Source: Candidatus Omnitrophota bacterium
GTDB taxonomy: Bacteria > Omnitrophota > Gorgyraeia > Duberdicusellales > 4484-171
NCBI GenBank assembly: GCA_024231025.1
Contig: JAAEQW010000256.1
Span: forward strand, 66,954-130,953
DNA length: 64,000 nt
Reading direction: 5' to 3'
Made by a program: the position numbers and the translations under genes. Shown one piece after another: positions 32,361-54,532 of the stretch; position 1 is the stretch's first letter; each line of letters begins with the position of its first letter. The notes under the pieces are model-generated. The model was not told where the DNA came from. It saw nothing but the letters and a program-made list of their open reading frames with translations, and searched no databases.

Positions 32361-33338
32361 ATGAAAGATAAAATTGTACCGTTGGCGATCGGCATAATTC
32401 TTGCGGCAGTTGCCACATTTATGATTAAGTCATATTTGGATGAGCAAAAAAAAGAAATGATTCAGCAAACTCGCGAAACAGTGATCAGCATGCGCGAAAA
32501 TCAGTCTGCCGTGTTTGTTGCAAGGAGGGATATCCGCAAAGGCGTTCCCATTCAGGCTAGTTTAGTGGATACGGCAGTGCTTGATAAACGCAACGTTAAT
32601 CCAAAAGCAGTAAGGTATTTTAGTGAAATTGAGAATAAGTCAACAGCAAAAGCTATTCGTGCGGGTGAGCAAATCACAACCGATGCCCTAAGAACTACTC
32701 GCATAGAAGCCGGTGGTCCTGGTGGCGGTCCGGTTACTTTTTCGATGGTTATTCCCGAAGGCAAGCGGGCGGTTTCGGTTTCGGTTGATAACGTTGCTTC
32801 AATTGTGCATATGATGCGTCCCGGGGATCACGTTGACGTTTTTGCGATAATCGCTTTTCCTCTGCCGGGGCAGCAAGGCAAACAACTTATGAATATTCCT
32901 CTTTTTCAGGATGTGGAGGTTTTGGCAGTGGGCGACCAGTTTAGTGAATCCAAATTAGCCAAGGTTGGGTCAAGCATAAAAAAGCTAGTTAACGAGAAAA
33001 AGAAAGATGAAAAGAAAAAGAAAGCAGCTAATAACCCAGCGATTACCCTTGCCTTAGATCCTCAAGAGGCCAACATAATTTCTTTCGTTCAAGAAGAAGG
33101 CAAAGTAAGACTTGCTTTACGTTCGCCAAACGATACTAGTAAAGTTAATTACAGAGCGCAAGTTGCTCAACAGCAGGTGGCACCATTAGTTACTACGCAG
33201 TCGTTTTTTCAGTATTTAGCGGCTAATGGATTAGTTACTCTTCCTAAACCAAAACCAACAGCGCCACCAAAACCCAAAGGTCCTCAGGTCGAAATATATC
33301 GCGGCCAGGAGAAGGAGGTTAAAACACTTAGAAAATGA
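32361..33338 (+). CDS. cpaB: Flp/Tad pilus assembly protein CpaB/RcpC-like
   Basis: N-terminal TM then the SAF-like VARRDIRKGVPIQASLVD. Confidence 0.7.
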   Translation: MKDKIVPLAIGIILAAVATFMIKSYLDEQKKEMIQQTRETVISMRENQSAVFVARRDIRKGVPIQASLVDTAVLDKRNVNPKAVRYFSEIENKSTAKAIRAGEQITTDALRTTRIEAGGPGGGPVTFSMVIPEGKRAVSVSVDNVASIVHMMRPGDHVDVFAIIAFPLPGQQGKQLMNIPLFQDVEVLAVGDQFSESKLAKVGSSIKKLVNEKKKDEKKKKAANNPAITLALDPQEANIISFVQEEGKVRLALRSPNDTSKVNYRAQVAQQQVAPLVTTQSFFQYLAANGLVTLPKPKPTAPPKPKGPQVEIYRGQEKEVKTLRK

Positions 33339-34915
33339 GAAAAAAAACTATAATTACTCTTGGTATTATCGGATGTTTGCTTGGTGGTGTCTTAGGCCAT
33401 TCTCAGGATTTTATTGAAGAGATCACCCTAATTTCCGGAGAAACTGTTTCAGTACCGGTTTATTCCCCTAAGAAGGTGGGGGTTGCCGATCCTAATATTG
33501 CCGATATCGTAACCACAAGTGATAGGGAAGTTGTTTTAATCGGCAAAATGAAAGGAAGAACAAGCTTTTTTGTGAATGACAGCACCGGTGATTACACCTA
33601 TAAGGTGCAGGTTATTCCTGAAGATATGGATCATTTACTCAAACGTGTGCGCAGTATCCTTAAGGACATGAGCTTAAAGGACGTAAAAGTAAAACCAGTT
33701 GCCGACCAGGGTAAAGTTTTACTTATTGGAAGCGTGCGCACCGTAGAAGACAAAGAGCTTTTAGAGGTTGGTTTGGGGGAATTATTTCCTAAAGTAACCG
33801 ACTTGGTAAAGATCGAAGAAGCGGCTCTTGTTGAAATTTTAGTTGAAGTGTTAGAGATGAGCACCGGCGCAACCAAAGAACTTGGTTTTGTTCCGCCGCG
33901 AACGGTTACTTTTGCTGAAGCCGCCGTTCCTCCTGCTGGGATTTCAGCAACAAGTTTGGTAAGAATTGCTCCGCTGCAGCGTTCTGATGTATACAGTTGG
34001 AAGTGGGACATGCTCGAAAGCGAAGGAAAAGTAAAGGTTCTTTCACGTCCGCGGGTGATATGCCAGAGCGGTAAAGAAGCAGAAATTTTAGTTGGCGGCG
34101 AAGTGCCGATATTTACAACTTCGGTTGCTAGTGCCGGCGGAGAAGGAACAACAGTTGAATATAAGGAATACGGCATAAAGCTAAAGATCAATCCTACCGT
34201 AACCGCGACCGAAAGAGTTGAGTTGGGCTTGAAAATTGAGATAAGCGAACTAGGTGAGGCCGAATACATTGGTACAGCGCTTGACCCTACCGCCAGAGCT
34301 TATCCGATTAAAAAGAGAGATATCTCTACATCACTTCATCTTACCGATGGTTCGACTCTTGCTATTGGTGGGTTGATAAGACAAAAAACAAGCGAAGATT
34401 TAATCAAATTTCCTTGGTTATCTGAAGTCCCTGTTTTGGGTGCTTTTTTTCGTCATAAGAAAAGCGAAAGCGGTGAAGGTTCAACTGCAAAAGGCGACAC
34501 TGAACTTTACATAACCATTACGCCGAAGGTTGTTTACACTGCTGATCCTAAAAGCCTAGAAGAGAAGCGTGTGATCGCCCAAGAAGAAAAGTTTATTGAT
34601 AAGTACAAAAAGTCGGACATTCCCGAAGAGCTGCAAAATTATATTTTAGAAATTCAAAGAATGATTCTAGCTAATATTAGCTATCCTTCGGTGCTTGTTG
34701 GTACCGGATGGGAAGGCAATATTGCCTTAAGACTTACAATTGTAGAAACCGGAGAACTAAAAGAGGTGCAGGTTCTTAAAGCTTCAGGCTATAAGATTTT
34801 TGACGAGCAAGCCTTAAAGCTCGTTAACTCTTTAAAGTATGCTCCGTTTCCTTTTGATAAGCCGTTAGAAGAATTAAAAATTGATGTACCGATAGTTTAT
34901 CGCGAAGGAAATTAA
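33335..34915 (+). CDS. cpaC: Secretin (CpaC/RcpA-like) fused to a C-terminal TonB_C domain
   Basis: Secretin core LSRPRVICQSGKEAEILVGGEVPI. The C-terminal ~90 aa (YPSVLVGTGWEGNIALRLTIVETGELKEVQVLKASGYKIFDEQALKLVNSLKYAPFP) match the TonB C-terminal fold. Confidence 0.75.
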   Translation: MRKKTIITLGIIGCLLGGVLGHSQDFIEEITLISGETVSVPVYSPKKVGVADPNIADIVTTSDREVVLIGKMKGRTSFFVNDSTGDYTYKVQVIPEDMDHLLKRVRSILKDMSLKDVKVKPVADQGKVLLIGSVRTVEDKELLEVGLGELFPKVTDLVKIEEAALVEILVEVLEMSTGATKELGFVPPRTVTFAEAAVPPAGISATSLVRIAPLQRSDVYSWKWDMLESEGKVKVLSRPRVICQSGKEAEILVGGEVPIFTTSVASAGGEGTTVEYKEYGIKLKINPTVTATERVELGLKIEISELGEAEYIGTALDPTARAYPIKKRDISTSLHLTDGSTLAIGGLIRQKTSEDLIKFPWLSEVPVLGAFFRHKKSESGEGSTAKGDTELYITITPKVVYTADPKSLEEKRVIAQEEKFIDKYKKSDIPEELQNYILEIQRMILANISYPSVLVGTGWEGNIALRLTIVETGELKEVQVLKASGYKIFDEQALKLVNSLKYAPFPFDKPLEELKIDVPIVYREGN

Positions 34916-37056
34916 TGGCTCAAACCATTGTTTTGTTTAGTACCAAGGGAGGAACAGGTAAAACCCTGATTTCTGCCAATCTTGCCTTTAGCCTCGCTAA
35001 GCTTAAGAAAAAAGTTTTACTCATTGATGGCGATTTAGATGTTGTTGGCAATATGGCCTGGATGCTTAATGTCTCTCCAAACAGGTCTATGGCCGATGTT
35101 ATGTATCTTTTGAAAAGAAAGAAGGTGTTTGATATTGGCGAATATATCACAAAAAAATATCAAAATGTTCACTTTCTTCCCTGCATTCTTAAGCCTCAGC
35201 AAAGTTCGCATTTTGATCCCGATTTGATAAGAGAAGTTATTGAGCCGTTACGTGAAAATTATGACTACATAATTATTGATGGCGGAAAGGCTTTTAGTGA
35301 AAGTTTGATCAGATTTTTTGACGAAGCAAATCTATTTTCATTAATTGTTACACCGGATGTTATTTCGGTTTATCAAACCAAATGGGCATTGGATACATTA
35401 CAATCTTTGTATTTTCCTCTTAAAATGTTGAAAATTGTTCTAAACCGTGCCGAATCGCTTGCGAGCATAAGCTTGCAGGAGATAAAATTAGTTTTTCCTT
35501 GTGAAGTAATCGCTAAAGTTCCTTCCGAAGGTAAAACAGCGATGCTTTCGGTTAACAAGAAAGTTCTTCTAGTAAATGAATTTCCCTTTAGTAAGATAGC
35601 AGCTTCAATAAAGCAATTTGCTAAAGATTTAGTTGATCGATCAGATATTTTTCTTCAGCGTAAAGAGATAAAAACGATTAAAGGCGAATTCGCAAAGAAA
35701 AAAGATCTTTGGGAAAAGCAAGGCCTGAAAGGAAATTTGGAATCCGAACTCAAAGAAGACCAAGAGTATGACGAAATCTCAATGCTAAAGCAAAAAATCC
35801 ATCAAAAGTTAATTGAAAATCTTAATTTGAAAAAAATGGATTATGAGAGTTTTTCTGAAATCGGAAAAGCTAAAGAAATAAGAAAACGCGCCGAACGCCT
35901 TATTGGCGAATTTTTAGCCGGCGAAACACATTCTTTAATTGGCTCGGTCGAAACCAGAAAAAAGCTTACTCTTGAAATTATTGACGAAGCGCTAGGCTAT
36001 GGTCCGTTAGAAGATCTTCTAAAGAACCAAGACATAACTGATATTATGGTAAACAATAAAGATGAAATTTACATTGAAGAAAGAGGCAAATTACAGCTTA
36101 CCAGTAAAAGATTTGTTTCTAACGAACAGGTAAAAACAGTAATCGAACGAATTATAGCTCCGATTGGCCGGCGGATTGATGAAAGTTCTCCTTACGTTGA
36201 CGCGCGTCTTCCTGATGGATCGCGGGTTAACGCGATAATCTCTCCATTAGTTTTAACTGGTCCGACATTGACGATAAGAAAATTTAGAAAAGAGCGCTTT
36301 AAACTAAAAGAACTTATTGAATATGAAGCGTTAAGCGAAGACATGGGCAAATTTATTGAGGCGTGTGTTTTAGCACGAAAGAATATAATTGTTTCCGGTG
36401 GTACCGGAAGCGGCAAGACGACAGTGTTAAATATTTTGTCTTCTTTTATCCCTGACGATGAACGTATCATAACCATTGAAGATGCCGCAGAACTTAAGCT
36501 TGATCAGCGTCACTGGGTAAGACTCGAATCACGTCCGCCTAATATAGAAGGTAAGGGGGCAATCGCTATTCGGGATCTTTTTAAGAACACCTTACGAATG
36601 CGTCCGGATAGAATCATTGTTGGTGAGTGCCGCGGGGTTGAATCGTTAGACATGTTACAAGCAATGAATACCGGCCATGACGGCTCAATGACAACAATCC
36701 ATGCTAATTCTACCCATGATATTTTAACTCGTCTTGATTCAATGATTCTAATGAGTGGAGTGGAGTTGCCGCTGCGTGCGATACGTGAAATGATCGCTTC
36801 AGCAATTCACATCATTGTGCATACTCAGCGCCTAAGCGATGGAAGCCGAAAAGTTGTTCAGGTTACCGAATTAACAGAGCTTGACGATGATATGCATATA
36901 AGTCTTAAAGATGTATTCAAATTTAATCAAACCGGCCTTGGCGAAAATGGTGAAGTGCAGGGCTACTTTGGTCCTACCGGATATATTCCTTCCTTTTATG
37001 ATGAAATAAAGGTGAGGGGGATACCTCTTCTTGAAGAAATTTTCAAGCCTAAATGA
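34915..37056 (+). CDS. cpaF: Fusion of a ParA/MinD-like CpaE/TadZ domain to a CpaF/TadA secretion ATPase
   Basis: N-terminal deviant Walker A STKGGTGKT; C-terminal VirB11-like SGGTGSGKTT with Asp/His boxes. Confidence 0.8.
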   Translation: MAQTIVLFSTKGGTGKTLISANLAFSLAKLKKKVLLIDGDLDVVGNMAWMLNVSPNRSMADVMYLLKRKKVFDIGEYITKKYQNVHFLPCILKPQQSSHFDPDLIREVIEPLRENYDYIIIDGGKAFSESLIRFFDEANLFSLIVTPDVISVYQTKWALDTLQSLYFPLKMLKIVLNRAESLASISLQEIKLVFPCEVIAKVPSEGKTAMLSVNKKVLLVNEFPFSKIAASIKQFAKDLVDRSDIFLQRKEIKTIKGEFAKKKDLWEKQGLKGNLESELKEDQEYDEISMLKQKIHQKLIENLNLKKMDYESFSEIGKAKEIRKRAERLIGEFLAGETHSLIGSVETRKKLTLEIIDEALGYGPLEDLLKNQDITDIMVNNKDEIYIEERGKLQLTSKRFVSNEQVKTVIERIIAPIGRRIDESSPYVDARLPDGSRVNAIISPLVLTGPTLTIRKFRKERFKLKELIEYEALSEDMGKFIEACVLARKNIIVSGGTGSGKTTVLNILSSFIPDDERIITIEDAAELKLDQRHWVRLESRPPNIEGKGAIAIRDLFKNTLRMRPDRIIVGECRGVESLDMLQAMNTGHDGSMTTIHANSTHDILTRLDSMILMSGVELPLRAIREMIASAIHIIVHTQRLSDGSRKVVQVTELTELDDDMHISLKDVFKFNQTGLGENGEVQGYFGPTGYIPSFYDEIKVRGIPLLEEIFKPK

Positions 37057-37223: not shown

Positions 37224-38645
37224 TTGATGCATCGACAAAAAGCGAAATTAAAAAATTTAATTTTAAAATCTTTTAAAAAGAATCCTTATTTTGGTGTACG
37301 TAAGATCGCCAAAGATTTAAAAGAGAAACACAATATCTTTGTTTCAAAAAGCTATGTTCACAAAATTCTAACCCAACAAGAGCCCGATGCGCAAACCGGC
37401 TGTAAAAAAAGTATTCTCGCCTATAAGAAAAAACACCTTGATGACTGCGGAGCGTTTTTGTTGCGGGCGATAGATTCGCACCTGGGATTATTCAACAATC
37501 TAACTAGCCTATTGCAGCCACATTTTCCTAAGTTGCAAGCGAAACTCCTTAAGAAAATTATTGTTTTCTTTTCACTTTCTTCATTTTTAGGATACGACCT
37601 AAACCAGGCATCAGAAGAAAAAAGCCTGCTTAGGGCCGCGGATTTATATGTTTATCCAGCTCGAAATATAAAATACTTCCTAGATCAGTTGAATGATTGC
37701 AAGCCGACGATCAGCCTTGACAATTTTGCTAAAAGCTTAGTTTCGGTGGCAAGCGTGAAATTTTCTTTTGTAAATGGCACAAAAAGCTATTGTGATGGGA
37801 GTTTTTCTTGTTTTTGGGGTAAACCTGCATTTATTGATGAATTTTTTGTTCCTTATAGTTTGGCACAAAAGAGAGTAAAGGCGATAATAAAGAATAAAAT
37901 CATCATGATCAACTATACTAAGAGTTTTGACTATCTTTCGTCGTTAACCACGAGTTTTATTGATGGTTTAGCAAGCGGAATAAAAACAATCGAACTTCTC
38001 GACAAAAAAGGTAATGTTTTGGAGGAATTTACTCCACCTCCGGTGAAAATGTCTTTTTTGATTGGATATTACCCCCAAATTCTCTCTAAAGGGGTGGTTT
38101 TTTTGCGTAAATCAGCCCGTTTTAAGAAATTTGACGCAATAGATGGCGATATCCACTATATTTCGGCCCTGGCTAGATTTTTACAACCAAAAGGGAGCAA
38201 AGGGCTTATATTAAATAGTGTACTTATTAACCGAAAACGTCAAAGTTTGCCTTCGTGGGGACTGCTTACCGATAAGCGGTCAAATTTCACTCTTTTTTTA
38301 AAAAGGTATCTTAATTCTTGGCCGTATATGGATAAGGTTTTTAAGGAGGAGATGGAGTTAGTTGAGAAGTTTTACACGCAAAGCAATAAAACAAAGGAGT
38401 TGGGCGATTTTGTGCCCGAGCACGTAGTTTTGAGTAAATTTGACGATTTCAAGGGAATTGGCGCTATTTTGGCGGCTGTTTTCAGGGATCGAGTGGCTCG
38501 GGTTGAATTGAGGGGCAAAAAGGGCCAAGTTGCCACCGGTAAAGATTATTTGCGAATTAAACTCTTAAGATTCTCTCCGGCATTTAAGAGGAAGTTCAAC
38601 AAATTCTCATTCTCAATTGATAAGCGCAATGTTTTCCTCATCTAG
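37224..38645 (+). CDS. Hypothetical protein with an N-terminal HTH-like region; candidate transposase-like cargo between two inverted-repeat elements
   Basis: A 473-aa ORF flanked by element copies B and C. Only the N-terminus (FGVRKIAKDLKEKHNIFVSKSYVHKIL) resembles transposase HTH modules. Confidence 0.45.
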   Translation: MMHRQKAKLKNLILKSFKKNPYFGVRKIAKDLKEKHNIFVSKSYVHKILTQQEPDAQTGCKKSILAYKKKHLDDCGAFLLRAIDSHLGLFNNLTSLLQPHFPKLQAKLLKKIIVFFSLSSFLGYDLNQASEEKSLLRAADLYVYPARNIKYFLDQLNDCKPTISLDNFAKSLVSVASVKFSFVNGTKSYCDGSFSCFWGKPAFIDEFFVPYSLAQKRVKAIIKNKIIMINYTKSFDYLSSLTTSFIDGLASGIKTIELLDKKGNVLEEFTPPPVKMSFLIGYYPQILSKGVVFLRKSARFKKFDAIDGDIHYISALARFLQPKGSKGLILNSVLINRKRQSLPSWGLLTDKRSNFTLFLKRYLNSWPYMDKVFKEEMELVEKFYTQSNKTKELGDFVPEHVVLSKFDDFKGIGAILAAVFRDRVARVELRGKKGQVATGKDYLRIKLLRFSPAFKRKFNKFSFSIDKRNVFLI

Positions 38646-38746: not shown

Positions 38747-38871
38747 AAAAACGAAAAACTAAGAACGTAGAGCCATAATTCAAAATTGTTCCGGAAACAT
38801 TACAATTTATTACATTTTCAGTAATTTTTAATTTCACGCTATGGCTTTGCGTTTTGCGCTTTTAGCTTTGC
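38747..38871. repeat. Hairpin-forming inverted-repeat element, copy C
   Basis: GCTAAAAACGAAAAACTAAGAACGTAGAGCCATAATTCAAAAT with the inverse arm CACGCTATGGCTTTGCGTTTTGCGCTTTTAGC. Confidence 0.65.
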
Positions 38872-39014
38872 GCTAACGTGATATTTTCAATTGTACAAGA
38901 ATTATAAAAATATCCGCTGAAAACGTTTACAATTTAGGTGTGTTTTTTTGAATTTCGCCTTGCTTTTGCTTAAGAGTATATGGTATATTGAAATGGTACC
39001 GAGATTAAGAAATG

Positions 39015-39150
39015 GGGGGCGGCGAAAAGGCAATCTTAAACTCGCCCTAGAGTTTAAGCGCGCAAAGCCACGGGTCCTATAAGGGCAAAAGATCAGGACG
39101 GCCGGGCTACCGAAGGTCTCTTAGAGGCGAGGTGGGCCGGTTTTTGTATT
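39015..39150 (+). promoter_or_regulatory. c-di-GMP-I (GEMM) riboswitch-like leader, copy 1, upstream of the pilin operon
   Basis: GGCAA..P1 stem-loop..CGCGCAAAGCCACGGGTCC..GGCCGGGCTACCGAA matches the Vc2 core (GGGCAAACC-P1-GACGCAAAGCC-P2-GCGGGGUUACCGA). A promoter-like TTGCTT..TATATT lies upstream. Confidence 0.65.
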
Positions 39151-39163
39151 ATAGAGGTAATTA

Positions 39164-39339
39164 TGTTAATAAGGCGCAAAAAATTGTGTGCACAAACAGT
39201 TCTTGAGTATATTCTCTTGACGGCGGCGGCAGTAATTGCCATTGCGGGGTTCGGAAAGTTTTTTAATATAATTGTAGGAGATTCCGGTGCATTAACCCGG
39301 CATTTTAATGTGATGAAGCAAAGTATAACCGGACAATAA
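39164..39339 (+). CDS. Small pilin-like protein with a class-III-like signal (58 aa; not in the ORF track)
   Basis: RBS AGAGGT; N-terminus MLIRRKKLCAQTVLEYILLTAAAVIAIAG. Confidence 0.55.
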
Positions 39340-39342
39340 AGT

Positions 39343-39498
39343 ATGAAGCGCAGAACAAAAACTCAAAGCATCGTTGAATACGTAATGCTGTTTATGATTG
39401 TGTCAGCAGCAATTATGATGACTTATAAATACCTGAACCGCTCGATGAACGCTCGCTTAAAACAGGTTCAGGAAGAATTAGAATACGAAGCATACTAA
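39343..39498 (+). CDS. Small pilin-like protein (51 aa; not in the ORF track)
   Basis: N-terminus MKRRTKTQSIVEYVMLFMIVSAAIMM. Confidence 0.5.
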   Translation: MKRRTKTQSIVEYVMLFMIVSAAIMMTYKYLNRSMNARLKQVQEELEYEAY

Positions 39499-39694
39499 TG
39501 ATTTTTTAACAGGGAGGTATTAAAATTCCAAATAACAAATCCCAAATCACAAACAAATCACAATGATTAAAATTCAAAACAGGAAAAGACACGTTTTTGG
39601 TCATTTGATATTGGAATTTGGTAATTGTTTGTGATTTGTTTTTTGGAGCTTGTATTTTTTGACAATATGATTTCTTAATGGGGGAGGTGAAGGG

Positions 39695-39931
39695 ATGTTG
39701 ATACGCAAAAAAGCGCAAGGAATTTTGGAGTATACCCTGCTTTTAGGGGCAATCATCGCGGTGGTCGTTACGGTAATGATGAAAAAGGATAGCGGTGTAG
39801 CCGCTAGGGTTAAAAAGACTTATGAAAAAGCAGGGACGGCGATTGATAAAACAAATAAAGACTTAAACGTTGGCGTTTTTGCACCACCGGCGAGTACTGT
39901 TCCCGGAGAAGTAACCGTGCGGCGGCGCTGA
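39695..39931 (+). CDS. Pilin-like protein with a class-III-like signal
   Basis: RBS GGAGGTGAAGGG; N-terminus MLIRKKAQGILEYTLLLGAIIAVVV. Confidence 0.75.
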   Translation: MLIRKKAQGILEYTLLLGAIIAVVVTVMMKKDSGVAARVKKTYEKAGTAIDKTNKDLNVGVFAPPASTVPGEVTVRRR

Positions 39932-39975
39932 TGATGATTAGTATATGGTAATTACGTTTTTAAGGAGGTGAAGCA

Positions 39976-40167
39976 ATGTTGATACGCAAAAAAGCACAGG
40001 GAATTTTGGAGTACACCCTGCTTTTAGGGGCAATCATCGCGGTGGTTGTTACGGTGATGATGAAAGAAGGGGGCGTAGCAAGTAAAGTTTCAGATACTTA
40101 CGAGAAAGCAGCGACGGCAATTGAGACGACAACCGATGATTTAACGTCGGGTGTTTTTGGGCCTTGA
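39976..40167 (+). CDS. Pilin-like protein, a paralogue identical to the previous one over its N-terminal 30 aa
   Basis: N-terminus MLIRKKAQGILEYTLLLGAIIAVVV. Confidence 0.75.
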   Translation: MLIRKKAQGILEYTLLLGAIIAVVVTVMMKEGGVASKVSDTYEKAATAIETTTDDLTSGVFGP

Positions 40168-40206
40168 TCGATATATAGTAACCATGTTTTTAAGGAGGTG
40201 AAAGAA

Positions 40207-40617
40207 ATGTTATTACGAAAAAAAGCACAATCAACCGCGGAATATGCAATTACCATTGGTTTAGTAGTTGCGGTTGCCGCAGGCATCATGCAAGTTGCCC
40301 TAAAGAATGGAATGCGTCAAAAGAGCAAGGAAGCTAATGATATTTTGCGCCGAGCAGGTACCGCTGCGATGGGGAGTATGGACGTTGACACGACTATTTT
40401 TGGTGGTGCGTCAACGGGTCTTAACCCTGATGCACAAGGGGCGTTTAACGTTTACAACGAAAGTGCGCGCTCAACAGTGGTTGACCAAGAAAGCTATCTT
40501 GATAAAACTATTCTTGAGAAGGGCGGAGCCGAAAAGAAACTTCAACACCGTGAAACGGTAACTACGTCGATGGATGTCGATAATTTTGAAAATGTAAATA
40601 AAGATACTACGCCATAG
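40207..40617 (+). CDS. Pilin-like protein with a longer C-terminal domain
   Basis: N-terminus MLLRKKAQSTAEYAITIGLVVAVAAG. ATG 40207 has the same RBS spacing as its paralogues; the ORF track begins at GTG 40198. Confidence 0.7.
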   Translation: MLLRKKAQSTAEYAITIGLVVAVAAGIMQVALKNGMRQKSKEANDILRRAGTAAMGSMDVDTTIFGGASTGLNPDAQGAFNVYNESARSTVVDQESYLDKTILEKGGAEKKLQHRETVTTSMDVDNFENVNKDTTP

Positions 40618-40654
40618 AAAATGAATAATGAAACCTAAAAAGGGGGGTGAAAAA

Positions 40655-41143
40655 ATGTTTTTACGCAAACAAAGAAAGTCGCAATCTATCTTAGAGTACG
40701 CTCTTTTATTGGGGGTAATTGTTGCCGCGATTTTGATTATGCAAACATTCGTTAAAAGAGGTTTTCAAGGGCGAATGAAGGATTCCGCCGATAGAATCGG
40801 CGGCGGTGAAACATTTTCAACTAGTGATACCGCAATTATTAGCACCAATACGATGACTTCTGACCAAGTTATTGTTGACGTTAAGGGCACCGCAGGTGCA
40901 GATGGTGCGATGCATGGTTTACTCACCGATGCGATTGGTGCAAAGCTTGCCGATCAAGCCGTAGTCGATATCGTAGGAAAGGGTGCGGCCGCTGCGAACG
41001 CACGTTTTGGTGGTGACATGACTTCCGAGACATTGCAGAAAACTTCTGATGCAACCAGTGAAGCTTATCGTCAAGCGGATTACACCGAGGCTGTAGTTGA
41101 AGATTTTGAGGATGACGACATTATTGACGCATTTGGTGACTAA
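40655..41143 (+). CDS. Pilin-like protein with a C-terminal domain
   Basis: N-terminus MFLRKQRKSQSILEYALLLGVIVAAIL; the likely start is the internal ATG 40655. Confidence 0.7.
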   Translation: MFLRKQRKSQSILEYALLLGVIVAAILIMQTFVKRGFQGRMKDSADRIGGGETFSTSDTAIISTNTMTSDQVIVDVKGTAGADGAMHGLLTDAIGAKLADQAVVDIVGKGAAAANARFGGDMTSETLQKTSDATSEAYRQADYTEAVVEDFEDDDIIDAFGD

Positions 41144-41222
41144 ATAGGCCATTGCTTGCGTATAGAGCTTTAGCGGTTTTTGAGTGTGCGCTATGCGCGC
41201 GTGAGCAAAAGGGTAAAGGATT

Positions 41223-41591
41223 ATGAAACTTAGAAAAGGACAGAGCATTTTGGAGTATGCCGTTTTACTTGCGGTGATTATTGCGGCACTGGCGGTTATG
41301 CAGACTTACATTAAGCGAGCCTATCAGGGTCGCCTAAAGCGTGAGGCGGATAATTTGGGCCAGCAATATTCTCCGGGGCACACAGTTACATTAAACGCAA
41401 CTGTGACCGAAAGTGATTCGGTAACCTATAGTGGTGGCAAAACCGACCCTGATGATTCTGATCTTATCGATGGAGAAGTGGAAGTTCCCGATGGGGTAAG
41501 CGTAACCTTTACCAAAACCAGCACGCGTACCGAACGCAGAGAAGGAATAGATTCTTACGCTACAGAGTTTGACGACGAAGATGACGATTAA
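41223..41591 (+). CDS. Pilin-like protein with an acidic C-terminus
   Basis: N-terminus MKLRKGQSILEYAVLLAVIIAALAV. Confidence 0.7.
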   Translation: MKLRKGQSILEYAVLLAVIIAALAVMQTYIKRAYQGRLKREADNLGQQYSPGHTVTLNATVTESDSVTYSGGKTDPDDSDLIDGEVEVPDGVSVTFTKTSTRTERREGIDSYATEFDDEDDD

Positions 41592-41663
41592 GATAAGGTT
41601 GTAGCGATTGCATGCAGGTATAATCTTAGTAGATTATACCTGAAGATTATACCAGGAGGACGA

Positions 41664-42170
41664 GTGAGTATGTTTTTGCGCAGGGGCCATAGTGTGATTG
41701 GGTGGATGCTGGTCTTTTCAGTGTTAATTTCGGTTACGGCCCTATTTAGAGCATCTTTAAAGCGCGAAATCGATAAAAAAGCGCGCGCTACCTCTGACTA
41801 TATTTTCTGGACCGGTTGGAAAACCGCAGACGGGACCGAAAATATGGAAGTTCCCCGCGATGACGACATTTTCAAACGCGATAAAAATTCAAAAGCAAAA
41901 ATTGTTGCCCATAACGAACAGAAACAATCTGTCGTCGAACGGAAAAAAGATTTTGTCACGATCGATTACAGTAGAGATCTTGATGGTAAACTGCATTCTG
42001 ATGTGACGAGATATAAAAGGGGTATTAATTATAACTATGAGAATGAGGACGCAAGAAGGATAATTTCTGCAGGAACCGGGAAGAATCAAGAGTATCTTTT
42101 AGATCGATTTGATCTTAATCATGATAAGTTTAAAATGGATGCTTCAGAGGACTTTGACACTGATGAATAG
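41664..42170 (+). CDS. Minor pilin / pseudopilin-like protein
   Basis: N-terminal hydrophobic helix MLVFSVLISVTALF following a basic stretch; lies in the pilin array. Confidence 0.4.
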   Translation: MSMFLRRGHSVIGWMLVFSVLISVTALFRASLKREIDKKARATSDYIFWTGWKTADGTENMEVPRDDDIFKRDKNSKAKIVAHNEQKQSVVERKKDFVTIDYSRDLDGKLHSDVTRYKRGINYNYENEDARRIISAGTGKNQEYLLDRFDLNHDKFKMDASEDFDTDE

Positions 42171-42966
42171 TAAATTTAAAAAAAGAGTTAGGGCGCAAGC
42201 TATAGCGGAGCTGGCAATTATGGGCAGTTTGATTATGGTTGCCTTCAGTATGATTTTATCTTATGGCCATCGCTTAGACAGAATACAAAACTTAAAAATG
42301 AAAACGTTCAGAGAGGCTCTGCGCAAAGCTTATTATAAAAACAGCACAGTAAACGTTACCAAGCGGGTCGATAGCCGTTCGGTGGATTTATTTAATTTTG
42401 GTAAGGGTCAGCCTTCAACCGCGCAGGCATCGGCGGCGGTAATGTGGCACAAAGGTATGCCGGGTGCGCAAGACACAAATGATGCTGCATTTAGCTTTTA
42501 TAGCATAAATGGTGTATATATTGGAGAGTACGGGTTCGCTGAGACTACTGGGCTTCCTAGGTACCACAAAACAGTTATTGGTGCAACTGGGGCAGAGTCT
42601 GAAATTCATAGTCCGGTGAGCGTTTATCGTGAAGAGTCAAAAAGGTATAGTTTTTATTCTGGAAATAAAGAGAAATCGGAAAGCGAGGATGGCATAGAAA
42701 ACGTTCGCTATGCTGATTTGCGTGACGATCTTGATATAAAAGTTAAAACTCGTTTTGATGCTGCCAAATACGATTCACGATTGGGTCCGGATGATCCCGA
42801 GCAGGAGTCACCTAAATATACACAGCATAGAAAATATGATTTAAAACAAACCGCGGTCTTTGATCCTTTGCTTGATGATGATACAATAACTTACAAAGAT
42901 GTAGAGGATGTCGATAGTGATTATCATGGTATTCATGTTGAAAGAACTCGGCATACGCCAAATTAA
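42163..42966 (+). CDS. TadE-like pseudopilin
   Basis: N-terminus MNSKFKKRVRAQAIAELAIMGSLIMVAF resembles the TadE/TadF N-terminal motif. The start overlaps the previous stop (ATGAATAG). Confidence 0.5.
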   Translation: MNSKFKKRVRAQAIAELAIMGSLIMVAFSMILSYGHRLDRIQNLKMKTFREALRKAYYKNSTVNVTKRVDSRSVDLFNFGKGQPSTAQASAAVMWHKGMPGAQDTNDAAFSFYSINGVYIGEYGFAETTGLPRYHKTVIGATGAESEIHSPVSVYREESKRYSFYSGNKEKSESEDGIENVRYADLRDDLDIKVKTRFDAAKYDSRLGPDDPEQESPKYTQHRKYDLKQTAVFDPLLDDDTITYKDVEDVDSDYHGIHVERTRHTPN

Positions 42967-43199
42967 TGGCAACAAAAATTTTATAAAAATTGGATTGTAA
43001 TTTGTAGTTTGTATATTATAATTTGTTTGTAATTTGTAATTTGTAGTTTGTAAGTTTTAAGTCCGGAAAATTCCGTAAAACGGGAAATCCTTAATTCTTA
43101 TCACTTACGACTTACGACTTATAACTTTACTCACGGGAGGTAAATATCAGTAAAAGAAGGCACAGTAAAAAAGGTTTCAAGAGGTGGGGTCAATCCATT

Positions 43200-44825
43200 T
43201 TGGGTTTTGTTTTTGCCTTTATCGCTTTAATGCTTCTTGTAATCGGCCTTACTCGCATTTGGATATGGTTTAACGCTAATTATGCCGGTCGTGCGGTTGG
43301 TTATCAAAATAGTCGGCTTGTTGCCGGAGGTGGAGAGTTAAGATCGGAAGGTGTTGGCAGTAATGCGAAGTTAGCAGAAGCCTATATGAAGGAAAGTATT
43401 CATGGCGAGCAGGGTTACTACGGCACAGAAGGTTACCTGAAAGACTTCAATCGATTTTTTTTAACTAAGGACTGGGTATTTAGGGGGGTTTCTAGCGGTA
43501 CAATTGATGACGGTCTAAGTGGTGGAATCACCGAAGCTGAGATTAATGATTGTTGTGAGGGTTGTTGTTCGGCTACCTCCTATGATAATGATATCTGCTC
43601 TTGTAAGGATCCCGGTGATTGCGGTGTTGGCGATGATTATGATAGTAATTGCGTTTGCCATGCTCATTGTGCCTGTGATGCTTCGGTTGCGGCCCAAATT
43701 TGGCTCTTAGAGAATCAAGCAGGGCTTTTAATTGAACAGGGAAACTCCCTAGAGGATAATGCAAGGTCATTAAGAAAGGCGGCTGGTGAGTGTGATGACC
43801 CCTGGGAGTTGTGTTTTTGGGGTGATTGGGGCAAAACTCCTCGCGAGCTAAGAAGTGCAGCCGCTGAATTAGACGATATGGCCTTAGAATTGTTTCTTGA
43901 GGCTGGCGCTTGGAAGACTACGTTTCATGAGGGTGATAATCCGGCGCATAATGATCAAGGCTACTATACTTTTTCTGATTATCTAGATCATAGAGCTACA
44001 GTAGATGAAAGTATAATAGGCAAAGGCGGAATCACTGATAGGATGCGCGAATGTTGCAAAATAGATGACGCTCCGTCACAAAAAGAATGCATTAATGCTG
44101 CTCGAACCGAAGCAGGAGATAGCTGTGATAGTTTAGTTTACAACTATGAGCTTGAACTAGTTGGCGAGCAAAGAAAATATCTTGAAAAATTGAGTGATGC
44201 AAGAGAGATCCTTGAGGATTTAGAGCCGGCAGTAACTGAGTGTGGCGTGAGTGCTGCTAATGGGTGTAGATCTGCATGCATGGGCAAGTGTACCACTTTT
44301 TGCCGTGATGCTGAAGGTGTTCCCTATGAATGTGTAGATGACGCCTGTTATCGAAATTGCCTCGGTCCGGTTGATGAGTGCACCCACGGTGCTAATTGCT
44401 ATGAGACGTGTTACCCTATTAGAAAAGAGCAATGTTGCCGTGACTATTGCGGTCCGAATTGTAGCGACGGTAATGGGTGGGGAAGAAATTGCGATAGTGC
44501 AGCTCCAATTGAAGCAAGTAGGCAGCATGAAAATGGCTTTATCGGCGGTTTAATTGGTGATACTGATCCCTCTGATAGTGCTGAGGAAATTATTGGAGCT
44601 TTTATTCCCGCGGCAAAGGATCATCTTGAAACAATCATTAGCGCGAAAGAGGCAATAGCGACCTGTTGCGCACAAGAGGCAGAAGATGCGGAAGAGGCAC
44701 AAGAGTTTGAAATCAATGAATTTAGTGAACAAGTAGAGTGTATAAGTGAAAAATTAGGCAACGCGTTGCTTTCTCCGGAGACATTAAAAAAAGGAGAGTA
44801 TGACGAATTCATGGGTGAGGAGTAA
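43200..44825 (+). CDS. Cys-rich (>40 Cys) large protein with a pilin-like N-terminal TM segment; candidate pilus-associated adhesin or minor pilin
   Basis: The frame is open upstream to 43146 and encodes ..KKGFKRWGQSILGFVFAFIALMLLV after a GGAGG RBS (43136-43140), but there is no ATG; the candidate starts are ATC 43146 or TTG 43200. Cys clusters include CCEGCCSATSYDNDICSCKDPGDCG. Confidence 0.6.
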   Translation: MGFVFAFIALMLLVIGLTRIWIWFNANYAGRAVGYQNSRLVAGGGELRSEGVGSNAKLAEAYMKESIHGEQGYYGTEGYLKDFNRFFLTKDWVFRGVSSGTIDDGLSGGITEAEINDCCEGCCSATSYDNDICSCKDPGDCGVGDDYDSNCVCHAHCACDASVAAQIWLLENQAGLLIEQGNSLEDNARSLRKAAGECDDPWELCFWGDWGKTPRELRSAAAELDDMALELFLEAGAWKTTFHEGDNPAHNDQGYYTFSDYLDHRATVDESIIGKGGITDRMRECCKIDDAPSQKECINAARTEAGDSCDSLVYNYELELVGEQRKYLEKLSDAREILEDLEPAVTECGVSAANGCRSACMGKCTTFCRDAEGVPYECVDDACYRNCLGPVDECTHGANCYETCYPIRKEQCCRDYCGPNCSDGNGWGRNCDSAAPIEASRQHENGFIGGLIGDTDPSDSAEEIIGAFIPAAKDHLETIISAKEAIATCCAQEAEDAEEAQEFEINEFSEQVECISEKLGNALLSPETLKKGEYDEFMGEE

Positions 44826-44840
44826 TGAGGTGACTTTATT

Positions 44841-46259
44841 ATGATGGTATTTTTTTCAAAAAACAAAGCTAATTATCGCAAGGGTCAGATTTTTCCCTTT
44901 TTACTTGCCCTGGTTGTTGTGATTATGATTATGTTAATGATTACAGTTAATTTGGGTCGTATTGGTGTGTTTAAAACCGATGTGTCAAATGCTGCTGATG
45001 CCGGTGCATTGGCCGGTGCAAGTGTATTAAGTGCGACTTTGCTTGAAATGGGTCTTAAGAATGACAGTATTTTTGGTTATGCGTTAACAATGTTTGGCTG
45101 TATTATTGTTGCGATAATTGCTTTTATGTATGTTGCAGCAATTGCTTGTGCGATTTCGCTTTTAATAACAATGTGGTCGGAATACTTTATAGTCAAAGGG
45201 GCCGGTGTTGTTGGTTGGGGAAACGCTAAAAAAACAGCGATCCAATATGCTTTTCAGAATGCCGGTATTGATGAACCGCGGCCCAGCTTTAAGCATTTTT
45301 TAGTTAAGGGCTGCGGGTTCTCTGAAGCCGAAGTCACCGAACTTCCACCGAATACAATTTCTGATCGTTACGATGAATATATGAACCAAAAATCTCGTCG
45401 TTCCCGTGACCACGGACGCAGTGGTTTTGGTAGATTTTTGGCAGACGATGAAAATGGTTTTTGGCGCCACACTATTGCTCCGGGTGATCGTCCGCCTCAC
45501 AAAGTGCACGCTGAATACGCTTGGAATAAAGATGGCACCAATTGCTGGGATGACGGTATTTGTAATAACCAGCCATTTGATAGTTGCCCCACTAGAGATC
45601 GTACTGCTGACTCAAGTGATAATTCAATATCACCTGAGTCAGCCTCAGATTGCATGGATAATTACGACTACAGCGTTAAGGTTGAAGTTAGCGGTGTAAA
45701 AATGTATGGAATTAAAATGTGGAGTTTTTTGGAGGGTGCCGAGCTGGTTACTTGTATGATCAACTATGTTTTAGGTAAGATAAACTGGCCGAGTTGGCTG
45801 GAGTGGCTGGGTAGTATTTTAAAGTTTATTATGTCGATATTTGGTTGGTTTCTTAATAAACTAGTTGCTACAATTTCTCCTTCAGGTTTTCGGCTAATGG
45901 GCGGTGATATAGTACAAACTGCCAAAAGTCCCTTAACAGTAACGGTTATAAAAAGAACAAGAGGTGGGAATGTTGGCTTCTGGAATTTTGTCTATGGTAA
46001 TAGCGATAATGAAGTTAGGGCAAGATCATCCGCGGTTGCCGGCTGGAATGAAAATCCTAATAATCCCGGTTTTGATTTTGAAGGGTGCGGTTGTCGAAGC
46101 ATTATTCCCACAGGAGGGTATACAAATTGTAAGGGGGGGGACTTAAAAGTTACCGGATTGTGTAATATACTCGTTGGTCTTCTTAAGGGTGATGCCGATT
46201 GGCAATATATGAATACAAAATATCATTTATTTGAAACTCGTTTAACTGCGGCGCAATAA
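44841..46259 (+). CDS. TadG-like pilus-associated protein
   Basis: N-terminus RKGQIFPFLLALVVVIMIML...SNAADAGALAGASVLS resembles the Tad_N/TadG N-terminal module. Confidence 0.5.
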   Translation: MMVFFSKNKANYRKGQIFPFLLALVVVIMIMLMITVNLGRIGVFKTDVSNAADAGALAGASVLSATLLEMGLKNDSIFGYALTMFGCIIVAIIAFMYVAAIACAISLLITMWSEYFIVKGAGVVGWGNAKKTAIQYAFQNAGIDEPRPSFKHFLVKGCGFSEAEVTELPPNTISDRYDEYMNQKSRRSRDHGRSGFGRFLADDENGFWRHTIAPGDRPPHKVHAEYAWNKDGTNCWDDGICNNQPFDSCPTRDRTADSSDNSISPESASDCMDNYDYSVKVEVSGVKMYGIKMWSFLEGAELVTCMINYVLGKINWPSWLEWLGSILKFIMSIFGWFLNKLVATISPSGFRLMGGDIVQTAKSPLTVTVIKRTRGGNVGFWNFVYGNSDNEVRARSSAVAGWNENPNNPGFDFEGCGCRSIIPTGGYTNCKGGDLKVTGLCNILVGLLKGDADWQYMNTKYHLFETRLTAAQ

Positions 46260-46261
46260 TT

Positions 46262-47110
46262 ATGGATATAAAAAAGTTAGCCGTGATTTTAAGTTTGTTT
46301 ATTGTTGGTTCGGTTTTTGCGGTGGACTTCCCTATTCCTCAGCCGCCACAAGGGCAAATGATTGACACCCATAGTATTGCTATGGGGGGGATTAATGTTA
46401 CCTCTTATGTTTATAGAAGCAGCAAAAAAAAGAGTGAGTTGGTTGATTACTACAAAGAGTTGTTTGATAAAAAAGAATTCAAACTCATTTTAGATCAAAA
46501 AGATTCCTCACGCGACAAGCGGCTTCTGCGTTATCGGCGCGAAGATTTAGTGATGACAGTTGCGATTTTGCCCAAAGATGGCGAAACTGAAGTTGTAATC
46601 GCAAAGTATATTCAACCTGAAGGAACTGCACCGCCGGAGGAGCGTAAAATGTCTTTTCAGGAAATGCTTGGGCAAATGCCAAAAGAAGACGAGGCCGGGG
46701 GTGATTTGGATGTTGTTCCGCGACCGCCGGATAGTGTGCGCATTCATTCTTATGTTCGAGGAAATGTGGCAGTTATTATTTATAATAGCGCTATTTCAGT
46801 AGAATCGTTAAGGGATTTTTACGATAATCAAATGGGATTGCACGGTTGGAAAAAAAATAAAGATATCGCAACCGGCGAGGTGGCACGTTCTTATAATACT
46901 GAAAAAGGTTTAAAAAAGGCATCGCCGATGGGAATGAGCTTTGCTTCAGATGTAAATGTTGGACAACTTATGCAGGGCGGTCGCAAGTTGCTTTTTCATG
47001 GACGGATGGGTAGTGCCGATATCACCCTATTAAATGCCGGTTCTGAAGATGAACCGCTAACGATAGTAACGATTAATTACAGAGAAGACGAAGAAATATA
47101 CGGAGAGTAG
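46262..47110 (+). CDS. Secreted hypothetical protein
   Basis: Signal peptide MDIKKLAVILSLFIVGSVFA; tightly linked to the TadG-like gene. Confidence 0.5.
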   Translation: MDIKKLAVILSLFIVGSVFAVDFPIPQPPQGQMIDTHSIAMGGINVTSYVYRSSKKKSELVDYYKELFDKKEFKLILDQKDSSRDKRLLRYRREDLVMTVAILPKDGETEVVIAKYIQPEGTAPPEERKMSFQEMLGQMPKEDEAGGDLDVVPRPPDSVRIHSYVRGNVAVIIYNSAISVESLRDFYDNQMGLHGWKKNKDIATGEVARSYNTEKGLKKASPMGMSFASDVNVGQLMQGGRKLLFHGRMGSADITLLNAGSEDEPLTIVTINYREDEEIYGE

Positions 47111-47111
47111 C

Positions 47112-47306
47112 ATGTTGCCAAGAAAGAAAAAATTATCACAAGCTGTAATTGGCTATGCTATTTTATTCTGCCTTATAGTATCAGCTTTGCTTATTGTTGG
47201 CCGCTACGTGAGAAATGCTTTTTCCGGTAGAGTCCGCCAAGCCGGTGATTCATTCGGCAGCGGCGAAGTATACGCCCCCTACGGTCCCGATGCCAGTAGG
47301 GATTAG
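47112..47306 (+). CDS. Small pilin-like protein
   Basis: N-terminus MLPRKKKLSQAVIGYAILFCLIVSALLIV. Confidence 0.55.
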   Translation: MLPRKKKLSQAVIGYAILFCLIVSALLIVGRYVRNAFSGRVRQAGDSFGSGEVYAPYGPDASRD

Positions 47307-47447
47307 AAATAATTATAGAAACCATGCCAGGAAAACGTCGAACCATAAGATTAAAGAATTATAATTACGCCTAAAATGGGATATATTGTGTAACAATATG
47401 CGCGTATAATCGCAAATATTTATTTGGAAGGATAAAAAATAATTGTA

Positions 47448-47675
47448 GGGGCACAGCGTGCTGTGCCCTCAATAAATATGGTAAAATTATTTATGATGAA
47501 TTGTGGATTTAATCCGTAATATCCATTGAATAATTAATATCGTAGGGGCGAATAATTATTCGCCCGTAAAAACGTCTTCCTTACGTAATTAAAATCCGTA
47601 AATATATTATCGATAATCCCATAAATTGGATTAATGATGATGAAAACAATAAAGAGGGCACAGCACGCTGTGCCC
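47448..47675. repeat. Internally deleted RAYT3 remnant bounded by two REP3 palindromes
   Basis: REP3 at 47448-47469 and 47655-47675. A 5' fragment is homologous to 22576-22608, and a 3' fragment (47595-47654) is homologous to 22887-22951. A further palindrome GGGCGAATAATTATTCGCCC lies at 47545-47564. Confidence 0.75.
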
Positions 47676-47847
47676 CTACAGATAATCTCATTAAATAATT
47701 ATAAATCGGTTTATTTTTATTGCCCTTCTTTCACGTTCTTAATTACTCCATTCCCTGTTTTTGCTTTACATCCCACCTCTTCAAAAGTATAATGTAATAA
47801 GACTTGAGGGCTGTTGCAAAATACAATAGCCAATTAATAAATAACCT

Positions 47848-48690
47848 ATGACTACAGCAATTTATTTAGCAGTTTTTGTCTCGGCAGTCCTTATCTTTAA
47901 TGTTATCGCCACTTATTTGTTTACCACTTGGTTTAAATGGCAGGCGAAACAGGCAAAGATGATGACAAACAAGCTGGATGATTCCTTTATCTTTCTTGAA
48001 AAGAAAAAGGTAATTGTCTTAACCGCTGCCCCTTTGATTCTAGGCTTTATTACTTACCTTTTATTAGGTAACATATTTATTGCTATTGCCGGTGGCTCTA
48101 TCGGTTTGGCTGTACCAACACTAATCGCTAATGCTGCAAAACAAAAACGAATTAAGGATTTTCAGGATCAGCTAGTCGACACCTTGATGATTTTTTCTTC
48201 TTCTCTTAAGGGCGGTTTAAGTTTTATTCAAGCGCTGGAGATTGTTTGTGAAGAAATGCCCACTCCAACCAGCCAAGAGTTTGGCCTTATATTAAAGGAA
48301 AATAAGCTTGGTGTGGGTTTAGAGGATTCACTGGAAGGATTGCGCAAACGAATGCCTTTAGAAGAGGTTGGGCTTATTGTGAGTTCGATTTTAGTGGCTA
48401 AAGAAACCGGCGGTGAGTTAACCAGGGTTTTTAGCCGTTTGGTTGAGACCATTCGCGATAATGTTAAATTAAAAGAAAAAATAGCAACGCTTACTTTGCA
48501 AGGTAAATTGCAAGGCTACATTATGGCGTGCTTGCCATTTGTTTTTACCTTTTTCGTTTATAAACAGAATCCGGAGCATTTTAGTGTTATGCTGGAGTCT
48601 CAATTTGGCCAGATGCTTCTTGCTGGTGCGATTGTTTGGCAGATAATTGGTATGGTTTTAATCAGAGTAATGAGTAAATTAAAAGTATGA
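47848..48690 (+). CDS. tadB: Tad pilus inner-membrane platform protein TadB-like (T2SS F domain)
   Basis: T2SSF-type membrane topology; sits next to the tadC-like gene. Confidence 0.7.
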   Translation: MTTAIYLAVFVSAVLIFNVIATYLFTTWFKWQAKQAKMMTNKLDDSFIFLEKKKVIVLTAAPLILGFITYLLLGNIFIAIAGGSIGLAVPTLIANAAKQKRIKDFQDQLVDTLMIFSSSLKGGLSFIQALEIVCEEMPTPTSQEFGLILKENKLGVGLEDSLEGLRKRMPLEEVGLIVSSILVAKETGGELTRVFSRLVETIRDNVKLKEKIATLTLQGKLQGYIMACLPFVFTFFVYKQNPEHFSVMLESQFGQMLLAGAIVWQIIGMVLIRVMSKLKV

Positions 48691-50080: not shown

Positions 50081-50092
50081 TACCTACCTCCA

Positions 50093-51025: not shown

Positions 51026-51087
51026 GGGGGCAAGGATTAAGGATTAAGAATCTCCCGTTTTTACAGGACCCCACTAAATAAAACAAT

Positions 51088-51259
51088 AACCAAGATATAT
51101 TTACAACTAACAAGAAGTAAAAACCAATTTCCCTGGCACCATTCAAATCATCCAGCGATGATTTTCTTTGGCGCTTCGACCTTAAAAATCCTTCACTTCG
51201 CTCAGGATACCATGCTTTTAAGGTCTCAGGGCCTGCCTGGAAAACTATTTTTACTTCTT
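51088..51259. repeat. ~170-bp structured repeat, copy B
   Basis: Homologous to 31097-31268; the internal hairpin here is GACCTTAAAA..TTTTAAGGTC, a compensatory pair relative to copy A. Confidence 0.75.
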
Positions 51260-54527: not shown

Positions 54528-54532
54528 GTATG

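Follow-up and report, generated by a model that had tools for sequence, protein, structure and literature searches.

The GEMM (c-di-GMP-I, hereafter GEMM-I) RNA class, described in 2007, counted pilus genes (cpaA, pilM, pilO and pilQ) among its targets from the outset, and in Geobacter its occurrences are linked to genes for pilus assembly and extracellular electron transfer (PMC1950547). A riboswitch of the second class for cyclic di-GMP (c-di-GMP), Cdi-2-4 of C. difficile, turns on pilA1 and the downstream pilus genes by preventing termination (PMC6366702). GEMM-I also occurs upstream of the collagen-binding adhesin gene cbpA of Bacillus thuringiensis (PMC7423583), and tandem c-di-GMP-I copies are known in Bacillota (PMC12452182). 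Members of the Omnitrophota have yet to be cultured and are for the most part ultra-small; they are thought to be attached to other cells or to prey on them, a lifestyle for which Tad pili and giant open reading frames (ORFs) are the main genomic clues (PMC10066038); riboswitches and c-di-GMP go unmentioned in that main genomics paper, and the literature we searched held no paper linking riboswitches to the Tad or giant-ORF genes of this phylum. Here we describe a leader at 39 kb in a 64,000-nucleotide (nt) stretch of DNA from a Candidatus Omnitrophota bacterium (contig JAAEQW010000256.1, positions 66,954 to 130,953; referred to hereafter as the window), which carries a GEMM-I aptamer in front of an array of Flp-like pilin genes and which probably acts as a c-di-GMP-dependent ON switch by anti-termination.

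Scanned in full with cmscan against Rfam 15 (4227 families, gathering thresholds), the window gave exactly four matches, all on the + strand and all within clan CL00126 (c-di-GMP-I); copies are named below by their start positions.

39019–39114, + strand, GEMM-I aptamer copy 1 (the 39-kb copy): RF01051, 42.5 bits (gathering threshold 35), E 6e-05 against all families
54532–54612, + strand, GEMM-I aptamer copy 2: RF01051, 57.7 bits, canonical GUAA P1 loop
61090–61221, + strand, GEMM-I aptamer copy 3: RF03167, 59.8 bits (gathering threshold 59)
61528–61647, + strand, GEMM-I aptamer copy 4: RF01051, 59.6 bits, same terminator as copy 61090

A first-pass annotation of this DNA had pointed to four recurring leaders at about 39.0, 54.5, 61.1 and 61.5 kb and had named the class I and class II Rfam models as the search that would bear on them; all four leaders are c-di-GMP-I clan matches above the curated gathering scores, and the class II model (RF01786) has no match at gathering threshold anywhere in the window. 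The conserved blocks quoted there (GGCAAxC, GGCGCAAAGCCACGGG and GCCGGGyUACCGA) could be located, as could the GNRA P1 loops of three copies (GUAA, GUGA and GUGA), to which the 39-kb copy is the exception.

The 39-kb copy aligns to the full RF01051 model (positions 1–87 of 87), and our own covariance model, R1 (built on 19 Rfam-confirmed sequences and searched against all of the 112 related loci described below), scores it at 69.1 bits. The foot of P1 consists of 2 base pairs (bp; 39030–31 with 39062–63), above which the stem proper pairs 39035–43 with 39050–58, giving 9 bp as against 6 in the family consensus; an AAA linker (39064–66) leads into P2 (39066–76 with 39097–39108), and the aptamer folded alone adopts both P1 and P2. 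By model alignment the ligand-contact positions are G20 at 39029, A47 at 39064 and C92 at 39110, the Vc2 numbering being mapped onto model positions by way of the Vc2 structure. The element thus resembles Vc2 and RF01051 in the build of P1 (2-bp base, 3-nt internal loop, distal stem), in its AAA linker, P2 and G20/A47/C92 set, and in its 5'-leader site before surface or motility genes. The P1 loop of GEMM RNAs was described as "almost always" GNRA, often with a receptor in P2, and the P1–P2 linker as virtually always AAA (PMC1950547); the GNRA loop is a typical, not an obligatory, feature of the class. By score, architecture and binding-site bases the 39-kb copy is a member of GEMM-I with an atypical P1, and we are highly confident that the RNA is a GEMM-I aptamer. 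Geobacter GEMM-Ib riboswitches for 3'3'-cGAMP share the same scaffold, but their cGAMP binding is linked to A20, whereas G occupies position 20 in all four window copies; a 3'3'-cGAMP specificity of the window copies was rejected on this ground.

Between the end of the aptamer (39114) and the first pilin-like ORF (start 39163) lie 48 nt.

39163–41591, + strand, seven Flp-like pilin ORFs (starts 39163, 39343, 39695, 39976, 40198, 40628 and 41223)

A motif scan of the translations finds, in each of the seven, the pattern [K/R]..[G/A]-Q-x-x-x-E-Y together with a hydrophobic N-terminus, as is typical of Flp/class-III prepilins. Against Pfam these ORFs give only sub-threshold Class_IIIsignal matches and against NCBIfam none above cut-off, such that the earlier wording "non-canonical" is a fair one; its count of nine pilin-like genes is approximately right, made up of seven clear motifs and three or four looser ones. 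Pilin arrays orthologous to this one, in the same order, are present in related loci L001, L005, L007, L009, L022 and L030.

The leader contains the following elements around the aptamer.

38919–38930, strand not given, near-palindromic element GAAAACGTTTAC, an 11/12 match to GAAArCGyTTTC (read from the sequence)
38960–38989, + strand, promoter-like element: −35 box TTGCTT (38960–65), 18-nt spacer, TG (38981–82), −10 box TATATT (38984–89) (read from the sequence)
39102–39145, + strand, intrinsic terminator, in the minimum free energy (MFE) and centroid folds of the full leader

The 5' arm of this terminator (39102–39111) is exactly the P2 3' strand together with A91, C92 and C93; it is followed by an inner hairpin (39116–39128), the 3' arm (39131–39140) and a U5 tract (39141–39145). 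In the RNA spanning 38997–39146, the terminator fold (MFE) has an energy of −50.1 kcal/mol and forms at the expense of P2, compared with −44.0 kcal/mol for the aptamer-constrained fold; a ligand bound with picomolar to nanomolar affinity, as by Vc2, would be expected to contribute more binding energy than this gap of 6 kcal/mol. Because one strand, with C92, serves both structures, aptamer and terminator are mutually exclusive, and a ligand that stabilizes the aptamer should hence prevent termination (ON). Most orthologous leaders likewise have a terminator built on CCGGGyUrCC that overlaps the P2 3' strand, as do copies 61090 and 61528. It should be noted that the 39-kb terminator was established by folding (MFE and centroid) and not by terminator scanning: the consensus scan did not list it, since the loop, with the hairpin nested in it, exceeds the length that the rule of that scan allows. 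The promoter similarly fails a consensus scan because its −35 box matches at only 3 of 6 positions; the layout TTGAC-17/18-TGnTATAkT is conserved in around 35 related loci.

We propose the following sequence of events. Transcription would start near 38996 from the extended −10 promoter; with no ligand bound, 39102–39111 would pair with 39131–39140 to form the terminator ahead of the U5 tract, and RNA polymerase would stop before the pilin ORF at 39163. Binding of c-di-GMP at the P1/P2 junction (39029, 39064, 39110) would hold the P2 3' strand inside the aptamer, blocking the terminator and allowing RNA polymerase to read into the pilin and pseudopilin genes, such that high c-di-GMP would switch pilin supply ON. 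The proposed anti-termination logic and the pilin target are those of Cdi-2-4; that system differs in having a class II aptamer (RF01786), a type IVa-like pilus and a Gram-positive host, whereas here the target is a Tad/Flp (type IVc) array of at least seven small pilins.

The TadG-like protein of the window is 100% identical to a protein of a "Candidatus Omnitrophica bacterium" metagenome-assembled genome, although an exact-protein look-up with it gave no match. Relatives were gathered by aligning 30 TadG-like homologues and using this alignment to fetch loci (a scan of genome contigs with the single TadG-like protein had given no relative). The resulting 112 related loci comprise 32 from species-representative genomes, all of them Omnitrophota or mislabelled as Planctomycetes, and 80 metagenome loci; Rfam scans gave many GEMM-I matches in the first 32. 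Across the 112 loci, model matches fall in two fixed contexts, the pilin array and very large ORFs. The pilin leaders (19 non-redundant) stand 40–120 nt before arrays in which three to seven Flp-like pilin ORFs were detected, and they share the syntenic place of the 39-kb copy, which accordingly has orthologues in 18 other Omnitrophota loci; the big-ORF leaders (25) stand downstream of the Tad cluster before ORFs of ~300 to >2000 amino acids (where the contig allows), and include window copies 54532 and 61528.

In the combined 44-sequence alignment, whose fitting to the covariance model favors the structure, 95.8% of cells pair and 12 of the 18 pairs change on both sides, as against 29–46% pairing when the 3' partners are slid; a MAFFT alignment made before any model gives the same pairing picture. 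The pilin class alone (n = 19) is 94.1% paired, with G20 kept in 17 leaders, A47 in all 19 and C92 in 17; A occupies position 47 in 44/44 related sequences. These compensatory changes support the predicted fold. The claim of the first-pass annotation that a GEMM leader precedes the pilin operon is thereby borne out, by the full-model RF01051 match, by the presence of G20, A47 and C92, by the 5' regulatory position before pilin-like genes of a Tad locus and by orthologous leaders with compensatory changes; the analysis shows that the RNA belongs to the family by covariance model, that it has this fold and a terminator incompatible with the aptamer, and that it is conserved at this position. Three related leaders, none of them in the window, carry A20 (L049 11034–11149, L001 15018–15174 and L023 4925–5054).

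The pilin leaders depart, as a class, from the canonical aptamer. A GNRA P1 loop is found in none of the 19, compared with 21 of the 25 big-ORF leaders; they share GGCAAU rather than GGCAAA, and in eight of the 19 (L001, L007, L109, L102, L110, L005, L023 and L002) the P1 loop holds a Shine-Dalgarno-like GGAGG. Nearly all pilin-class and variant leaders carry, on the P2 3' side, the element AGGGyCAArAG preceded by GCUUy (AAGGGCAAAAG in the window). No pairing partner was found in the pilin leaders for either the GGAGG loop or the AGGGyCAArAG element.

When the comparison is widened to all non-identical pilin leaders with the shared upstream palindrome and promoter (n = 35), only 12 match the model. 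The aptamer-less leaders keep GCCACGG and the terminator, with P1 or the P2 3' strand gone, and none of the four tested yields a match to any Rfam family even at E <= 10. Their positions include L014 6084–6225, L020 6262–6400, L065 4007–4155, L067 and L069, with further examples in L024, L025, L026, L086, L095 and L105 (near 6886–7070) and in L004, L006, L015, L043 and L053. Three variant groups can be told apart: one resembles a P1-deleted GEMM-I (GCAAC, an A-rich stretch and GCCACGGUGCGUUGC) that keeps a P2-like helix and the overlapping terminator; a second has an AUGCAU/AUGCAU hairpin whose loop contains GCCACGG; and a third keeps a P1-like hairpin and has lost the P2 3' strand. The aptamer-less leaders may be riboswitches that have decayed, or they may be a regulatory RNA of derived kind. 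We put forward, tentatively and as a doubtful proposition, that the pilin leaders form a lineage-specific GEMM-I subclass (no GNRA, an extended P1 often with GGAGG, an AAU/UGC internal loop and AGGGyCAArAG), with sister lineages holding truncated derivatives at the same place; if so, the tertiary contact may be a different one or the derivatives may answer another signal, and a c-di-GMP riboswitch would have been remodelled in place.

The palindrome itself, GAAArCGyTTTC, precedes the −35 box of the pilin-array promoter by ~20 nt in 39 related loci (for example at L002 4893, L020 6196 and L024 6820). Of its 54 + strand matches in 1.19 Mb, 39 are located no more than 450 nt ahead of the first pilin gene; the element in the window was missed by this pattern search owing to its one mismatch. 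It is probably a candidate site for a dimeric transcription factor, and as a regulator site it would place the pilin operon under dual control. A degenerate second copy lies near 38795–38812. The 370 nt preceding the 39-kb leader contain a duplicated promoter-proximal segment, which may reflect an insertion.

A number of observations weigh against c-di-GMP control of the 39-kb leader. Where Vc2 and RF01051 have a GNRA tetraloop on a 6-bp P1 and an AAA/GAC internal loop, the 39-kb copy, in its uncultured Omnitrophota host, has the hexaloop GCCCUA (39044–49) on its 9-bp stem and an AAU/CGC internal loop, and its P2 contains no recognisable tetraloop receptor; with these three changes, affinity or even the ligand could differ. 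Its 42.5 bits are the lowest score among the four window copies, the leader folds no more stably than shuffled sequence (z −1.1), and the terminator, whose U tract is only five residues long, contains a G-G mismatch. The window revealed no diguanylate cyclase. The lack of a detectable GEMM-I aptamer in 23 of the 35 pilin leaders implies that control is dispensable in sister lineages and that the leader is evolutionarily labile. Finally, the whole case is built on sequence, from which we infer that the ligand binds, that the switch is an ON switch, where transcription starts and how far the operon extends.

We also considered whether a P1–P2 kissing loop could stand in, class-wide, for the tetraloop-receptor contact: in the 39-kb copy the P1 loop sequence GCCCU could pair with the AGGGC that the AGGGyCAArAG element places in the P2 loop, a match equalled by 11 of 500 shuffled loops. 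This candidate was rejected, comparable complementarity being absent from 18/18 orthologous pilin leaders, including the closest (L027 and L101); the window pairing is probably chance, because one case at p ~0.02 among 19 is to be expected by chance.

The RNA could also be a GEMM-I descendant that has ceased to sense c-di-GMP, either through a change of ligand (e.g. to 3'3'-cGAMP or another dinucleotide) or through decay to a ligand-independent or protein-controlled attenuator: the entire pilin-leader class lacks GNRA and has altered P1 internal loops and its own AGGGyCAArAG in P2, leaders of sister lineages have lost P1 or the P2 3' strand at the same position and match nothing in Rfam, and the conserved upstream palindrome points to added protein control. 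We nonetheless judge such a loss unlikely. The 39-kb copy has G20 rather than A20, and cGAMP-binding variants are tied to the G20A change; A47 and C92 are present as well, each of the three bases persists in 17–19 of the 19 pilin leaders, a conservation that loss of ligand binding would not be expected to leave, and the match lies above the curated Rfam threshold.

Alternatively, the aptamer could bind c-di-GMP with a different outcome, as an OFF switch, through control of translation or RNA stability, or by merely tuning a constitutive attenuator. GEMM-I riboswitches of both signs are known, Cd1 being an OFF switch (PMC6366702), and for Vc2 an off-switch that acts on RNA stability has been described (bioRxiv 10.1101/617340); in orthologues L001, L007, L102 and L021, moreover, the terminator sits just 3' of the aptamer with no P2 overlap. 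In the 39-kb leader itself the terminator 5' arm coincides exactly with the P2 3' strand plus C92, a topology that gives ON, and its folds contain no evident alternative anti-terminator and no Shine-Dalgarno-sequestering helix, making this outcome distinctly improbable here. That the match is a chance resemblance or non-functional remnant, as the lowest score and the unexceptional fold energy might suggest, is very hard to reconcile with its whole-window E value against all families, three stronger paralogues in the same window, syntenic orthologues with compensatory changes in 18 other loci, and a matched promoter and terminator.

On the preferred reading, c-di-GMP-dependent anti-termination, the other three copies would be the same device before large ORFs, and together the four would amount to a small regulon through which c-di-GMP controls attachment genes. 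The occurrence of the same RNA before the pilin array and the large ORFs, in dozens of related loci, predicts one second messenger co-ordinating the attachment apparatus via termination; if true, this would offer a first way into the regulation of the apparatus that Omnitrophota use for attachment or predation. The GEMM-I class and its pilus link have been known since the first description (PMC1950547), and the locus brings no new kind of regulator or principle; what it adds is a conserved two-target regulon in an uncultured phylum and an unusual P1 subclass.

54653–60961, + strand, 2102-amino-acid ORF downstream of copy 54532, no Pfam domains
61803 to beyond the window edge, + strand, large ORF (>732 amino acids; to 63998 in the window) downstream of copy 61528, no Pfam domains

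Copies 54532 and 61528, each with a large-protein gene downstream, find their parallel in the cbpA riboswitch, except that the ORFs here have no Pfam domains; we infer that these large riboswitch-preceded proteins, unannotated in Pfam, are surface proteins. The 2102-amino-acid ORF is homologous to riboswitch-preceded ORFs of L003 and L001, and contains a perfect 11-bp hairpin with a T-run at 54739–54773. Among the large riboswitch-preceded ORFs, which in relatives include those at L003 16020, L028 8193 and L018 13992, several share an N-terminal GGKGG-x4-L-x-S-S before a hydrophobic segment, and a second large-ORF family in relatives begins FKSSFKxWIRVVAFIVVAVFLPEQVAQAVEYDWRVLW.

The assertion that each copy has its own promoter-like element holds most firmly for copy 54532, whose TTGACA-18-TATATT with TG (54497–54526) passes the consensus scan; for the other three, a TTG-type −35 box, a 17–18 nt spacer and a TGn-extended −10 box were only read directly from the sequence. 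The mechanism of copy 54532 is less clear than that of the other copies: no simple terminator was found downstream, and in its MFE fold the 5' part of the aptamer pairs with 54618–54640 ahead of a U-run. In this copy U replaces C at the C92 position (54608) and GUGGGU replaces ACCGAA after P2; U at this position also occurs in L003 (15775) and L002 (4996). Such a U may form a G-U wobble pair with the ligand, with a different affinity or selectivity.

Copy 61090 has a terminator (CCGGGUUAC...GUAACCCGG, then U4, ending at ~61249), and the next copy is reached without an intervening ORF, marking it as an orphan duplicate leader. Aligning 61040–61480 with 61470–61830 reveals that promoter, aptamer core, terminator and the box GAGACTTGGTTTCTAAGCGATTGAAA are conserved and that distal P2 has diverged; copy 61090 reads as a recent duplicate of the 61528 leader. 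It would be either an orphan riboswitch for a non-coding transcript of ~250–400 nt or a dead duplicate; terminator-like hairpins are present downstream of it, at 61430–61482. The pair recalls the tandem c-di-GMP-I arrays of Bacillota, with the difference that here each copy has its own promoter and terminator and the two do not share one leader.

Copy 61090, like the big-ORF leaders of many relatives, scores slightly better with the RF03167 variant than with RF01051. The RF03167 consensus CGCGAAg has G at position 47, whereas the sequences here read CGCAAAG or CACAAAG, with A47; copy 61090 reads CGCAAAG and was thereby ruled out as a true GGC variant, its binding site being canonical because A, not G, stands at the defining position. 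The RF03167 label on this copy is an effect of clan competition and scoring. RF03167-labelled big-ORF leaders in relatives (L023 15012, L024 16644, L025 15995, L028 8008, L029 10364, L031 9204 and L032 12361) all have A47, so that automatic annotation would mislabel them; they differ from the RF01051 consensus mainly by U-A for C-G at the P1 base (GGUAAAC...CACAAAG).

Beyond the seven pilin genes, the locus continues with further components of a Tad system, the remaining parts of which are encoded before the leader; the HD-GYP protein encoded elsewhere in the window is listed last.

32361–33338, + strand, RcpC/CpaB (Pfam RcpC)
33335–34915, + strand, secretin RcpA/CpaC (Pfam Secretin)
34915–37056, + strand, TadZ-like/TadA ATPase fusion (Pfam AAA_31/CbiA and T2SSE)
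41664, 42109 and 47112, + strand, looser pilin- or pseudopilin-like ORFs (by motif)
43200–44825, + strand, Cys-rich 541-amino-acid ORF
44841–46259, + strand, TadE/G-like protein (Pfam Tad domain PF13400)
46262–47110, + strand, 282-amino-acid ORF
47848–48690 and 48687–49559, + strand, TadB- and TadC-like platform proteins (Pfam T2SSF in both)
10581–12023, + strand, GAF and HD-GYP protein (Pfam HD_5, 1.1e-30, and GAF)

The riboswitch-controlled unit likely extends over 39163–47306, with 41664–47306 as the part following the pilins. Terminator-like sites within 39100–51400 are not above chance (10 found, as against 11.4 expected from shuffles), and a strong promoter-like site at 47765–47793 precedes TadB and TadC. 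The fusion at 34915–37056 encodes 713 amino acids, with a ParA/MinD-like TadZ/CpaE part (residues 3–181) joined to a TadA/CpaF secretion ATPase (361–642); an A24 prepilin peptidase is encoded at 16048–16866. Between the Tad ATPase gene and the leader, a 473-amino-acid ORF (37224–38645) has a weak, below-threshold match to HTH_21, a transposase-type helix–turn–helix.

As for c-di-GMP metabolism, the first-pass annotation had listed an HD-GYP phosphodiesterase and a PilZ receptor in the window. The former is recovered, as the GAF and HD_5 protein at 10581–12023, a putative c-di-GMP phosphodiesterase whose translation has the HDIGK, HHHEFLDGTGYP and HHE...GTGYP motifs intact; the latter is not, there being no Pfam PilZ domain in any scanned ORF at thresholds from 1e-4 to 0.5 (the scan excluded very small ORFs outside the Tad cluster). 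Elsewhere in the window, a 2417-amino-acid ORF (474–7727) contains two HATPase_c-type domains (at around residues 648–717 and 1704–1809) and no other recognised domain, and three IS200-like (Y1_Tnp) ORFs, two of them partial, lie at 7972–8691, 21174–21887 and 22638–23000.

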